64,000 bases of DNA from Nitrospirota bacterium. GTDB taxonomy: Bacteria; Nitrospirota; Thermodesulfovibrionia; Thermodesulfovibrionales; Dissulfurispiraceae. The stretch spans positions 160,001-224,000 of the forward strand of contig CAWBMP010000002.1 of the NCBI GenBank assembly GCA_963790025.1, in the 5' to 3' direction. Below, one piece after another: positions 57,042 to 61,896 of the stretch. Below the pieces are notes generated by a model, which had not been told where the DNA came from, searched no databases, and saw only the letters and a list, made by a program, of their open reading frames with translations. Made by a program: the position numbers and the translations under genes. The number at the start of each line of letters is the position of its first letter. Positions within the stretch are counted from its first letter, which is position 1.

Positions 57042-57290
57042 CTACTCCTCGACAAGTTGCCACTCAGCGTAACCGTCTTTCCTATCAAGAAACTTCCTAC
57101 CGGTTAATCTGACGCCGGCTATTGTAGGATGCGTCTTGATATTTATATAGGCTCTTATCAGATTGGCTATTGTCGCTTCTTGCAGTGTAAATTCCGTATC
57201 ATCTTGAAGTACAATAGTTGTCCTCAGGTGCTTATGACCCTCCGGTATCTCAACCAGTAATTCCTTCACATCTTCATTTCTAATTATCAT
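57042..57290 (-). CDS. Small hypothetical protein, divergent from the peptide/radical SAM locus
   Basis: AAGGAG RBS; IPEGHKHLR...QEATIA...RAY...THP...GYAEWQL. Confidence 0.75.
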   Translation of the reverse strand: MIIRNEDVKELLVEIPEGHKHLRTTIVLQDDTEFTLQEATIANLIRAYINIKTHPTIAGVRLTGRKFLDRKDGYAEWQLVEE

Positions 57291-57413
57291 GAAAGCTCCT
57301 TTTCACTCGCCACGCTAACCGTTTTACAATGATTTTAGCATACAATTGAATTATGCCGACCCCGGTACACGTTGTGGCACATTCCCGTATATTAAATAGA
57401 AAAATTCTGGCAT

Positions 57414-57456
57414 TTGACAAACAGTAAAAATAAGTTATTCTATAGATATAATCTAT
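57414..57456 (+). promoter_or_regulatory. Promoter for the peptide/radical SAM operon with an overlapping palindrome
   Basis: TTGACA (57414-57419)-16 nt-TATTCT; palindrome ATAGAT-ata-ATCTAT (57442-57456). Confidence 0.5.
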
Positions 57457-57498
57457 TTGTATCGGTAAACCTATAGACTGAAGGGAGGTGAAAGAAGG

Positions 57499-57621
57499 AT
57501 GAAAAAGACATTGTCCGCAAGGGCCCTCGCGAAAGAAACTGCTTTCTGGGATAACCTGAAACAGACTGCAAAAGAAAATCCTGGGAAAACATGTCACAAG
57601 TGAAAGGGTTGAAAGAGTTAA
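57499..57621 (+). CDS. Putative selenocysteine-containing RiPP precursor (40 aa with U35 and U38; 34 aa if the first UGA is a stop)
   Basis: GGGAGGTG RBS; MKKTLSARALAKETAFWDNLKQTAKENPGKTCHK-TGA-KG-TGA-KS-TAA. Confidence 0.7.
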
Positions 57622-57622
57622 A

Positions 57623-57639
57623 GTTGCCGGTTCGGCAAC
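57623..57639 (+). promoter_or_regulatory. Bacterial SECIS-like hairpin
   Basis: gttgcc-GGTTC-ggcaac; 16 nt and 25 nt separate the two UGAs from the loop, and the loop starts with G. Confidence 0.6.
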
Positions 57640-57647
57640 GAAAAAAA

Positions 57648-57703
57648 AGGCAGATATGAACGCTAAATACCGGCAGAATTGGTACCAATCGTCATATCTG
57701 CCT
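57648..57703 (+). other. Intergenic stem-loop between precursor and maturase genes
   Basis: Perfect 12-bp IR aggcagatatga / tcatatctgcct. Confidence 0.65.
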
Positions 57704-57719
57704 GTTATTTTGATAATAA

Positions 57720-58808
57720 ATGGCAATGATGGATGCTAAATCTGAAATCATACGGAAACCAATGTCAATAAACGAACCTCTGGAATTCTTCATTCAGCTG
57801 CATCTTACGGAGAGATGTAACCTCAAATGCACGCACTGCTATCAATCCGGAGAGAGCCCGGATGAGATGTCTTTGGCCGAGATAAGAAGTGTAATCAGTG
57901 AGGTTGCTGATATGCTCAGGGAATGGTCAGCGGCTTACGATGTTACTTTTTCTTCCAGTTTCAATATCACCGGCGGTGAGCCGTTTCTTAGACAGGACAT
58001 TTTCGATGTACTGGAGGAACTAACCAAGCAAGGAATTGATGCCTATTTGCTTTCTAACGGGATACTCATCAGTCGGGATAAGGCTGAAATGCTTGCTCAG
58101 TTGGGAGTGAAAGGAGTACAGGTAAGCATTGAGGGCCCGGAAGATATTCATGACGCAATAAGAGGCAAGGGAAGTCTGAAGCGGTCTCTTGCAGGAATAA
58201 AATACCTCCTTGATGCTGGAATAGAAGTGACCTTGAATACAACGCTTTCCGATATAAATGCCCCGTATTTTTTGGACGTAATAGCCCTGGCATCTTCAAT
58301 AGGCGTTCAGAAGTTGGGGTTTTCAAGGCTGGTACCGTCCGGAAGTGCGAGAAAATTATTGAATAGAATGCTTACTAAAGAAGTCCTGGAGGTTTTGTAC
58401 AGCAAAATATTTTCGCTGAATACCGGCAACCTGAAAATTGTCACGGGTGACCCCGTAGCGTCACAGTTTAGAAAACCAGTGAGTGAAGAGGGTAATAACT
58501 CCTTTCCATCCGGTGGATGCGCGGCAGGTGTCTCGGGCTTGACAATCCTGCCTGATGGAACAGTAACTCCATGCAGAAGACTTCCTGTTCCTATTGGAAA
58601 TGTAAGAACAGATTCTCTGAGGGAGATATGGTCGACATCGGAGGTCTTAAACTCACTGAGGGACAGGTCCGGATACGATGGGAAATGCGGCGGATGCAAA
58701 AAATGGTCAGCATGCAGAGGGTGCAGAGCAATAGCTTATGAATTTTCATGTTCTCATGGGACAACAAATTACCTGGCAGAGGACCCACAGTGTTTTCTGC
58801 AAAACTGA
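57720..58808 (+). CDS. Radical SAM/SPASM domain enzyme, putative peptide maturase
   Basis: CNLKCTHC, TGGEP, SPASM cysteines CAAG...TPC...CGGC..WSACRGC...C. Confidence 0.9.
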   Translation: MAMMDAKSEIIRKPMSINEPLEFFIQLHLTERCNLKCTHCYQSGESPDEMSLAEIRSVISEVADMLREWSAAYDVTFSSSFNITGGEPFLRQDIFDVLEELTKQGIDAYLLSNGILISRDKAEMLAQLGVKGVQVSIEGPEDIHDAIRGKGSLKRSLAGIKYLLDAGIEVTLNTTLSDINAPYFLDVIALASSIGVQKLGFSRLVPSGSARKLLNRMLTKEVLEVLYSKIFSLNTGNLKIVTGDPVASQFRKPVSEEGNNSFPSGGCAAGVSGLTILPDGTVTPCRRLPVPIGNVRTDSLREIWSTSEVLNSLRDRSGYDGKCGGCKKWSACRGCRAIAYEFSCSHGTTNYLAEDPQCFLQN

Positions 58809-58814
58809 AAAAGG

Positions 58815-59357
58815 ATGGTTGAAATGGCTAAATGGATTATAGATTCTGATCACTCAGTAGCAGCATTTTCTGTCCACCACATGATGATTGCGTATGTTCG
58901 CGGTCAGTTCAATAGAATTGAAGGGACTATTTTTTTTGATCCTCTGAACATTAATAACTCTTCAATCGCGCTGTCCATCGATGCCTCAAGCATTTTTACG
59001 GGGATACAGAAACGTGACGACCACCTGAAAAGCCCCGATTTTTTTGATATCGATACTTATCCCACCATCTCTTTTAAATCCAGCCGGATAGATTCAGGGA
59101 ATGGTAACAAGGTAAAAGTGACCGGCGGCTTAACAATACATGGCATAACACGTGAGACATCTGTCTTGGCAGAATTTTCAGGGCCTGTAAAAGACCCTTT
59201 TGGAGACGGATTAAGCATGGGCTTTTCAGTATCAGCCACAATAAACCGCGAAGACTATAAGATTATGTGGAATCAGCCAATGGCCGACAATGGCATCATG
59301 GTTGGCAGGGAAGTCCAGCTTTTTATAGATGTGGAAGCTGATCTTGACACTGAATAA
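58815..59357 (+). CDS. yceI: YceI family protein
   Basis: W.ID.DHS..FSV.HMM...VRG.F, RDDHLKS.DFFD...YP.I.F. Confidence 0.92.
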   Translation: MVEMAKWIIDSDHSVAAFSVHHMMIAYVRGQFNRIEGTIFFDPLNINNSSIALSIDASSIFTGIQKRDDHLKSPDFFDIDTYPTISFKSSRIDSGNGNKVKVTGGLTIHGITRETSVLAEFSGPVKDPFGDGLSMGFSVSATINREDYKIMWNQPMADNGIMVGREVQLFIDVEADLDTE

Positions 59358-61263: not shown

Positions 61264-61896
61264 CTATTTCATCATTTTCTCGTGGTCATGATGCTCCATT
61301 CCCTTCATCATGTCGCCCTTCATCATACCGCAGCCGCATCCCTCGCCGCCCTTCATCATGCCGCCGCACATACCGCCCTCCATCATACCGCCGCCCATCA
61401 TGTGCTTTTCCATCATCTCTTTGAGTTTTGCTCTCTGTTCGGGGGTCAACACTGCCTTGCCTTCCTGAACAGCACTCAGGCGCGCAAGGGTCATGGCCGT
61501 CTTCATGGATTCTATCTCTTTCAGCTTCGATTCCGCTGCTTTCATATCTACGGGATCTTTGCTGATAATATCTTCGAGGTCAACTTCCGCTATCTTCAGT
61601 TCGGCCTTCCTTTTGATCATATCTTTCTTTGTTCTGAGGATTATTCTGTCTATTTGTTCCTTTTGCTTTTGATCGAGACCGAGGTGACTAAGCATCATCC
61701 TGATATGATGTTCGCTCATCATCATACCGCCGCCCATCAGACCACCCATCTTGCCGCACATCATGCCGCCGCCCAGTGGGGGATCGTCCTGCATCCCAAC
61801 ATTCTGTCCCATCGGCTGTGCAACAGCGCCGGTAATGCCGAATCCCATGACCAGTAATAAAATTGCCAAAATCGTTATGTAACGTTTCATCTTCAA
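61264..61896 (-). CDS. Spy/CpxP-family periplasmic protein with Met/Gly/Cys/His-rich tails
   Basis: Signal peptide, LGLDQKQ and VLTPEQ motifs, GGGMM repeats. Confidence 0.85.
   Translation of the reverse strand: MKMKRYITILAILLLVMGFGITGAVAQPMGQNVGMQDDPPLGGGMMCGKMGGLMGGGMMMSEHHIRMMLSHLGLDQKQKEQIDRIILRTKKDMIKRKAELKIAEVDLEDIISKDPVDMKAAESKLKEIESMKTAMTLARLSAVQEGKAVLTPEQRAKLKEMMEKHMMGGGMMEGGMCGGMMKGGEGCGCGMMKGDMMKGMEHHDHEKMMK

Follow-up and report, generated by a model that had tools for sequence, protein, structure and literature searches.

We report a small two-gene system in a 64,000-nucleotide stretch of DNA from a Nitrospirota bacterium (hereafter, the window; contig CAWBMP010000002.1, positions 160,001 to 224,000). 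A precursor gene of 40 codons contains two in-frame TGA codons that appear to be read as selenocysteine (Sec), and is followed by a hairpin that resembles a selenocysteine insertion sequence (SECIS) and by the gene of a radical SAM enzyme with a SPASM domain. According to our analysis, the peptide very probably carries two Sec residues, and the enzyme probably acts on or with it. The complete reading, in which a 40-residue, two-Sec peptide is handed to the neighbouring enzyme, which modifies its Cys/Sec core, is the one that we favour, with more reserve than either of its parts. We judge from the sequences that the pair represents a common family of ribosomal peptides that contain Sec and have a radical SAM partner, the second such family and one distinct from, and unrelated to, SbtA/SbtM. 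The open reading frame (ORF), its Shine-Dalgarno (SD) sequence, both TGA codons, the hairpin and the enzyme gene all lie where the original prediction, made from the letters of the window, had placed them.

Under translation table 11 the precursor ORF is called as 34 aa, that is, 34 sense codons followed by TGA AAG GGT TGA AAG AGT TAA, with the terminal TAA at 57619-57621. Reading both TGA codons as U gives the peptide MKKTLSARALAKETAFWDNLKQTAKENPGKTCHKUKGUKS. An SD sequence stands at the equivalent spot in all 15 sequences compared, GGAGGTG-like in 14 of them and GGAGG in locus L024. The 125-nt stretch folded at the second, terminator-like hairpin has a minimum free energy (MFE) of -38.3 kcal/mol (z = -4.56), and none of 200 shuffles folds as well; a strong second hairpin was also seen by eye at the equivalent place in the orthologous loci. 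The coordinates of these features are compiled in Table 1.

The arrangement is conserved well beyond the window and clearly exceeds what chance would give. Orthologous loci were gathered around relatives of the enzyme, one genome per species, and in 14 of 14 loci from other species (enzymes 56-84% identical) the peptide, both TGA codons and the hairpin precede the orthologous enzyme. We also searched a profile built from 15 peptides in six frames, with stops read through, against 401 sampled genomes of the window's phylum. It matched 75 genomes, 73 of them real and including the window's own (G000); the matches in G028 and G381 were dropped as weak partial matches inside long ORFs. Every real match that spans profile positions 35 and 38 has exactly two TGA codons, and in no homologue is codon 35 a TAA or TAG stop. 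The peptide occurs in 51 of the 162 sampled genera, with a vertical but patchy spread, and its gene is single-copy in most genomes. It is also present in 19 of 351 sampled genomes of a second phylum, that of L024, again with two TGA codons where the match is full; three of these matches stop near profile position 36-37, and the tail variants include UKKUKA, UKSUKA and UKEUKGKP. The residues E13, W17, C32, K34, U35, U38 and K39 are invariant, as are M1 and K2 in 15 aligned peptides (nearly so in 39). The C-terminal core, C-x-K-U-K-[GS]-U-K-S, is better conserved than the leader, in which K-E-A-A-F-W is conserved.

Protein databases hold the peptide mostly in its shortened form. An exhaustive profile search of 1.84 billion representative proteins (E <= 0.001) returned 115 representatives, and nearly all the short ones end at profile position 34, the site of the first TGA. 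Twelve of the 115 were retrieved; the sole full-length match among these, P0123, translates all three TGA codons as W. Three others (P0209, P0212 and P0229) are unrelated long repeat proteins, in which the motif D-W-E-T-L...N-P-G-K-I-C-P-K scores against profile positions 17-34, and were set aside as a chance likeness. When proteins were searched by word index with the peptide, the 34-aa form from the window itself was the only match, and the 40-aa peptide with U read as C had no NCBIfam match at E up to 0.1 and no Pfam match.

The genome of the window possesses the Sec machinery whose presence the original prediction had made a point to be checked, with selA (608.9 bits), selB (355 bits), a selD that itself has an in-frame TGA, and tRNA-Sec. 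Further selenoprotein genes of this genome, with one in-frame TGA each, are included in Table 1. Within the sampled phylum, selA is present in 67 of the 73 peptide-bearing genomes versus 125 of the 328 without the peptide, and 67 of the 192 selA-bearing genomes have the peptide. Among the six exceptions, selB is accompanied by a frameshifted selA in G212, selD carries an in-frame TGA in G111 and G127, and the remaining G151, G218 and G260 are 86, 86 and 63% complete; at least one Sec marker is thus present in 70 of the 73 genomes. Five named families without selA (133 sampled genomes) gave no real peptide match, the single match in family f30 being the spurious one in G028, and a genome of the same genus as the window's (G322, 98% complete) is without selA, peptide and enzyme alike. 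The peptide element is confined to Sec users, an association that we give as counts and not as a probability because kinship among the genomes makes them non-independent.

The peptide and the enzyme travel together. The enzyme gene adjoins the peptide gene in 43 of 44 loci, window included, the exception being L115. When the same 401 genomes were surveyed for the enzyme (match at E <= 1e-90), 74 matched: 72 have both genes, one has the peptide only (G182, 88% complete), two have the enzyme only and 326 have neither. In 64 of the 72 genomes peptide and enzyme share a contig. Among the other eight, five are truly unlinked (named below), G288 and G390 were examined in part, and G356 is an assembly split in which the first 197 enzyme residues stand beside the peptide at the contig end. 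At L180 (G131:C3:8300-11000), from one of the two genomes with the enzyme only, the gene of the enzyme is 5'-truncated and contains a TAA. Immediately upstream is a tRNA-like stretch, and there is no peptide gene; this locus looks like a deletion or integration scar. The original prediction had named beforehand three findings that would speak against it, namely a genome without sel machinery, homologues stopping at codon 35, and enzyme homologues that never have the peptide upstream, for example by grouping with heme enzymes; our surveys returned none of the three.

A structural prediction of the complex points in the same direction. It was made with our own alignments, 41 sequences for the enzyme and 39 for the 34-aa, table 11 part of the peptide, so that its calibration is only rough. 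The score was 0.79, against 0.01 for the best of three controls, a mark attained by 116 of 157 solved complexes and by 2 of 215 mismatched pairs. At least 73% of contacts are shared between the runs, and the partner has a per-residue confidence (pLDDT) of at least 70. In the predicted interface, residues 2-27 of the peptide meet residues 55-61, 245-251, 285-300 and 316-317 of the enzyme, with W17 in contact with enzyme residues 55, 58, 59 and 61, and F16 and E13 with 287-292 and 300. On the enzyme side of this interface, W55 and R300 are invariant in 41 enzymes, and R287, E288 and W290 nearly so. The model supports binding of the peptide leader by the enzyme.

The enzyme itself matches Pfam Radical_SAM (84 bits) and SPASM (45.1 bits). 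Its start is probably M15 (57762) since the homologues are mostly of 345-351 aa and cover 96% of the longer, 362-aa ORF. Conserved in 41 enzymes are the CX3CX2C motif (C19, C23, C26) and, in the SPASM part, C253, C271, C309, C312, C318, C321 and C344. It scores below every NCBIfam cut-off (bits/cut-off): AhbD 181.4/500, NirJ2 177.7/500, ACGX 166/400, TIGR04053 149/395, GeoRSP 140/400, SbtM 133.9/350, MftC 122.4/265, PqqE 88.9/381 and PapB 72.5/340. The chain begins 18 residues ahead of the first cluster Cys. By sequence, the nearest solved structures are SkfB, anSME, CteB and PqqE; anSME aligns from residue 14 of its chain, while for the peptide maturases among the four the alignment starts only at about residue 100-112 of theirs, and for SkfB, CteB and SuiB at about residue 100-160. 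To judge from these alignments, the enzyme has a minimal, anSME/AhbD-like build without an N-terminal recognition domain.

Whether the peptide is the substrate of this enzyme or only its companion is the question on which the best-surviving alternative turns. The peptide could be an unmodified small selenoprotein, with a redox or metal-binding C-x2-U-x2-U tail on a helix, that serves the enzyme as a partner (for instance by donating electrons or selenium, or as a cofactor peptide that faces a cluster). The predicted binding suits a partner as well as a substrate, and the core outdoes the leader in conservation. UxxU and CxxU motifs are typical of redox and metal-binding selenoproteins in the table of PMC13188914. 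The neighbourhood, surveyed in 27 loci with flanks of about 5 kb and in 44 with short flanks, also offers this alternative some support. Only the enzyme is consistently linked to the peptide in the long-flank loci, where no protease or exporter is conserved. A YceI gene lies downstream of the enzyme in 16 of the 44 short-flank and 7 of the 27 long-flank loci; in 4 of the 27 it is followed by the gene of a 454-aa pyridine nucleotide-disulfide oxidoreductase with dimerisation domain, and a nitroreductase and an OmpA-family gene follow in one lineage. Against it, all four nearest solved relatives modify a peptide or protein, and a leader-like helix followed by a short C-terminal core is the classic layout of a precursor. 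Characterised SPASM radical SAM enzymes encoded beside a short conserved peptide are the modifiers of that peptide. We therefore regard an unmodified selenoprotein as an unlikely explanation.

The codons past the first UGA bear on another alternative, in which translation halts at that codon, the product has 34 residues, and the TGA-AAG-xxx repeats and the hairpin constitute an RNA element of other role. Gene callers do close the ORF at codon 34 in almost every library entry, and the stretch resembles a 9-nt tandem repeat made of TGAAAG and three more letters; the lack of a Cys form and of an Rfam match to SECIS, described below, also fits. We compared 66 distinct tails from 80 loci, collected with a regular expression that demands U at both places, so that the constancy of TGA in this set is by construction. 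Codon 36 is AAG in 55 tails, AAA in 5, AAC in 3 and AGC in 3. Codon 37 encodes Gly in 38 (GGT, GGC, GGG) and Ser in 26 (AGT, AGC, TCC), with a single Lys and a single Glu; codon 39 is AAG in 55, AAA in 10 and AGA in one; and codon 40 encodes Ser in 62 of 66 (AGT, AGC, TCT, TCC, TCA) and otherwise Gly or Ala. An in-frame stop follows the second UGA within 2-4 codons in all 66 tails (TAA 33, TGA 22, TAG 11). The three variable letters of the repeat thus give only Gly, Ser or Ala, bar two single exceptions, with Ser reached through both of its codon families, and the Lys codons vary between AAG and AAA or change to Arg. To judge from this pattern, the codons past the first UGA evolve as coding sequence, which argues against a halt there.

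The hairpin also resembles a SECIS element. As described in PMC13188914, the bacterial SECIS (bSECIS) consensus has a loop of 3-9 nt, a stem of 4-16 bp, a G in the first two loop positions, 16-37 nt from UGA to loop, and an MFE <= -7.5. The window hairpin agrees with this model, at -10.3 kcal/mol and with its loop about 16 and about 25 nt from the two UGAs; the proposal that one hairpin serves both is compatible with the published distance rule. The second UGA lies 9-13 nt from the stem in 65 of the 66 tails. Among 14 distinct stem sequences, 97.6% of cells are paired and two of the six pairs change on both sides (C-G, U-A or A-U in one; U-A or C-G in the other); none of 500 shuffles reaches this covariation score, and it collapses in slid registers. 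Two selenoprotein genes of known family in the same genome served as controls. In formate dehydrogenase alpha (TIGR01591, 875 vs cut-off 666 bits) the UGA is followed after 11 nt by GTGGCCGGTCTGGCCAC, with a 7-bp stem and a GGTCT loop, and in the Thioredoxin_2 UxxC protein after 16 nt by an 8-bp stem with a GGTC loop. The UGA-to-loop distances in these controls are 18 and 24 nt, and the two distances of the peptide fall 1-2 nt beyond that span on either side. With a hairpin so like this genome's own SECIS elements in build and spacing, and with the element restricted to Sec-using lineages, a 34-residue product seems to us quite improbable.

The order of the parts, from the short two-UGA ORF through its hairpin and the terminator-like one to the enzyme gene, would also suit a selenium-sensing leader peptide, in which the efficiency of Sec insertion at the two UGAs sets terminator read-through into the enzyme gene. 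This attenuator reading is rejected because unlinked copies of the peptide exist: in at least five genomes the peptide gene stands by itself with its hairpins, at a distance of more than 3.5-5 kb from the enzyme, and G344 holds additional copies. The leader is moreover conserved in its amino-acid sequence and predicted to bind the enzyme, and the stop codon lies 26 nt before the terminator stem, which from the coordinates would be too far for masking by the ribosome; we hold the attenuator reading to be very improbable. That the enzyme is a heme-pathway protein of AhbD or NirJ type, with an incidental ORF upstream, is scarcely credible and was rejected: AhbD and NirJ2 are its best NCBIfam scores and some sources label its homologues 'AdoMet-dependent heme synthase', but both scores are far under the 500-bit cut-offs, a much better AhbD candidate (441 bits) is encoded elsewhere in the genome (C4:283968-284990), the co-occurrence with the peptide is near-perfect, and no Ahb or Nir genes are among the conserved neighbours.

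Several observations weigh against the reading that we favour. The original prediction had expected Cys and UGA to interchange at positions 35 and 38, and this expectation failed: Cys replaces neither Sec in any of the 73 genome matches or the 115 library representatives, and the classical comparative proof of Sec is missing because no Cys form was found. A search of Rfam over 57400-57800 at E up to 10 gave no SECIS family and only four chance-level matches. The hairpin energies of the 66 tails range from -14.0 to -5.2 (median -8.2), a minority being weaker than the -7.5 limit, and the first UGA is farther from the stem, at 19 nt, than the UGAs of the two controls (11 and 16 nt). On the side of the enzyme, the second enzyme-only genome (G024) is complete and has an intact enzyme, with no peptide found within 700 nt, and peptide and enzyme are unlinked in the genomes just mentioned (G396, G235, G378, G138 and G366, with flanks of about 3.5-5 kb on both sides). 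The predicted complex covers the leader of the peptide without its Sec core. The enzyme has no N-terminal RRE/PqqD-like leader-recognition domain, which the solved maturases SkfB, CteB and SuiB of ribosomally made, post-translationally modified peptides (RiPPs) do have, and no PqqD-like gene is among its conserved neighbours; nor is any tailoring, protease, exporter or immunity gene conserved in the 27 long-flank loci.

For the two-Sec precursor and its maturase we infer the following course of Sec insertion, modification, chemistry and role. A SelB complex with Sec-tRNA would bind the loop of the single hairpin just past the stop codon. The ribosome would reach UGA-35 with the hairpin wholly outside the mRNA channel, and UGA-38, three codons on, when the stem stands at the entrance of the channel; between the two, another SelB complex would have to load. 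A terminator-like hairpin after the precursor gene would yield more precursor than enzyme transcript. The product would be a basic 40-mer with a helical leader and the C-terminal C-x-K-U-K-[GS]-U-K-S core. Once released, it would dock by its leader helix directly on the 348-aa enzyme, without a separate recognition domain, so that its C-terminal tail could reach the active site and a selenolate or thiolate could ligate an auxiliary Fe-S cluster. A 5'-deoxyadenosyl radical would then abstract a hydrogen and a C-Se or C-S bond would form, giving selenoether cross-links. Selenoether or thioether cross-linking is our tentative first choice for the chemistry; an SbtM-like heterocycle is a second and improbable option, and the remaining share falls to other chemistry.

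As to function, a core more conserved than the leader, a mostly single-copy gene, the absence of a conserved protease, exporter or immunity gene, and the vertical but patchy spread together suggest a conserved intracellular redox or metal-binding peptide, with a logic nearer to the PQQ and mycofactocin precursors than to a bacteriocin. In a bolder version, which we think rather unlikely, the product of the pair would be an organoselenium redox cofactor that is genetically encoded and derived from a peptide, a 'mini-redoxin' with a diselenide, selenylsulfide or selenoether. Many sulfate-reducing and syntrophic anaerobes would use it, and YceI and the class-I flavoprotein disulfide reductase encoded after the pair in some genomes would recycle it; one SECIS would decode two UGAs nine nt apart, and a third UGA, nine nt on, would terminate because it is too near the hairpin. 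In 22 of the 66 genes the stop codon is itself TGA (e.g. L013:2409-2411), the third TGA within 21 nt and 1-3 nt ahead of the stem. Termination at this third TGA would be explained by its lying far inside the 16-nt minimum distance.

The closest precedent is SbtA/SbtM (TIGR04081/TIGR04082), likewise a UGA-encoded Sec peptide beside a radical SAM/SPASM enzyme in anaerobes. The original prediction of a family distinct from it stands, since neither the peptide nor the enzyme qualifies for its family model. The core of SbtM is homologous to our enzyme (model positions 198-516 of 516), whose sequence lacks the first 197 positions, and TIGR04081 is not matched by the peptide, whose C-x-K-U-K-[GS]-U-K-S core stands at the extreme C-terminus, compared with SGUG in SbtA. 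The window system, for its part, has one hairpin past the stop codon for both UGAs. In Table 1 of PMC13188914 (2026), the 'Selenobacteriocin' (TIGR04081, SGUG, 2 Sec) is the only peptide among 119 prokaryotic selenoprotein families, and the C-x2-U-x2-U peptide is absent; we also found no description of it in the open-access papers and preprints searched.

Other comparisons are more distant. PapB (ranthipeptide) and Tte1186 (SCIFF) are also radical SAM/SPASM enzymes that act on Cys in short repeated motifs and, according to PMC10177961, accept selenocysteine in artificial substrates, bind it at the auxiliary cluster and form Se-C bonds. In their substrates, however, Sec is unnatural, the PapB model scores far below its cut-off for our enzyme, and the window peptide has no Asp/Glu acceptor motif, the neighbours of its chalcogens being conserved Lys, Gly and Ser. 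Two Sec residues three positions apart near the C-terminus are also known from UxxU selenoproteins (Prx-like, FmdB-family and NF041115 metal-binding proteins, and the C-terminal 'star' families), but these are folded proteins of known domains, none of them a 40-residue peptide paired with a radical SAM enzyme. The PqqA/PqqE and MftA/MftC pairs likewise combine a short precursor that has a highly conserved C-terminal core with an adjacent SPASM enzyme, and are chromosomal and without immunity or export genes; they differ in having no selenium, and our enzyme is below the cut-offs of MftC and PqqE. The PqqA/PqqE and MftA/MftC systems use a separate PqqD-type chaperone and several further enzymes.

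Table 1. Features of the peptide-enzyme locus (positions in the window) and further selenoprotein genes of the same genome (positions on contig C4).
Feature	Position	Strand	Remarks
Promoter-like site	57414..57441	+	TTGACA, 16-nt spacer, TATTCT; 10/12 consensus positions
Shine-Dalgarno sequence GGGAGGTG	57483..57490	+	8 nt ahead of ATG at 57499
Precursor gene	57499..57621	+	40 codons and TAA; TGA at codons 35 and 38, putatively read as Sec
First UGA (putative Sec35)	57601..57603	+	19 nt to hairpin stem, ~25-26 nt to loop
Second UGA (putative Sec38)	57610..57612	+	10 nt to stem, ~16-17 nt to loop
SECIS-like hairpin GTTGCCGGTTCGGCAAC	57623..57639	+	6-7 bp GC-rich stem, G-G-U loop, 1 base past stop
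Terminator-like long hairpin and U-rich tract	57648..57712	+	between precursor and enzyme genes
Radical SAM/SPASM enzyme	57762..58808	+	348 aa; alternative upstream ATG 57720 (362-aa ORF)
YceI-like protein	58815..59357	+	Pfam YceI 150 bits; optional third module gene
Two formate dehydrogenase alpha genes (TIGR01591, TIGR01553)	C4:691601-694444, C4:1019114-1022242	-, +	one in-frame TGA each
Thioredoxin_2 UxxC protein	C4:1010726-1011319	-	one in-frame TGA
SelD	C4:824216-825151	-	one in-frame TGA

Some features of the locus and its relatives deserve mention on their own account. Hexamers of the TTGACA type were read by eye, unscored, upstream of the peptide gene in several orthologous loci as well. 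A simple terminator scan of the window passes over the terminator-like hairpin, whose loop exceeds the length that such a scan allows. Divergent from the peptide gene is an ORF of 82 aa (57042-57290, minus strand), which has no Pfam or NCBIfam match and is not kept beside the peptide in other genomes. Farther along, the ORF list contains a 210-aa ORF (61264-61896, minus strand) with a signal-like N-terminus and, at either end, long runs rich in Met and Gly (repeated G-G-M-M), whose predicted product resembles metal-binding periplasmic proteins. At L020:1026-2500 an insertion of about 1.45 kb, possibly a mobile element, separates the peptide gene from that of the enzyme. G344 has three copies of the peptide gene (L160, L161, L133), one adjoining the enzyme, one alone and one degenerate, without a clear start; the degenerate copy is followed by YceI and the flavoprotein pyridine nucleotide-disulfide oxidoreductase.

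A pair of genes in a Chlorobium sp. metagenome-assembled genome may be a sulfur counterpart of the Sec family, and we offer it as a lead drawn from its sequence. It consists of a 70-aa peptide (L027:2282-2491, plus strand), which has an F-W motif in its leader and six repeats of C-[RK]-S that place a Cys at every third residue, and of a 337-aa radical SAM/SPASM enzyme (L027:2501-3511, plus strand), 37% identical to that of the window, which starts 6 nt (two codons) after it. Alignment of the 70-aa peptide to the leader of the Sec peptide with hhalign gave a probability of 80% over 12 columns. Both members score below the NCBIfam cut-offs, and 1-2 kb downstream there is a Nif11-type precursor together with a second SPASM maturase. 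The enzyme of the pair was found in only one of the 301 sampled genomes of its phylum, its own, and a crude filter found no comparable peptide upstream of other radical SAM homologues of 30-37% identity (Poribacteria, Kiritimatiellia and others).

If our reading is correct, this would be the second natural family of Sec-containing ribosomal peptides beside SbtA/SbtM, to go by the inventory of PMC13188914, and a common one, the pairing being widespread in anaerobic bacteria. Gene callers and selenoprotein surveys miss the peptide because its ORF is cut to 34 codons. Sec appears to be obligatory at two positions and no Cys form was found, and therefore the enzyme or its product seems to need selenium chemistry, which would make the pair a clean system for asking what selenium does that sulfur cannot. 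According to the predicted complex, the enzyme apparently recognises its leader without a RiPP recognition element (RRE) domain. The mRNA, with two UGAs that would be decoded and, in a third of the genes, also a terminating one, all within 21 nt, may serve as a natural test of the SECIS distance rule.

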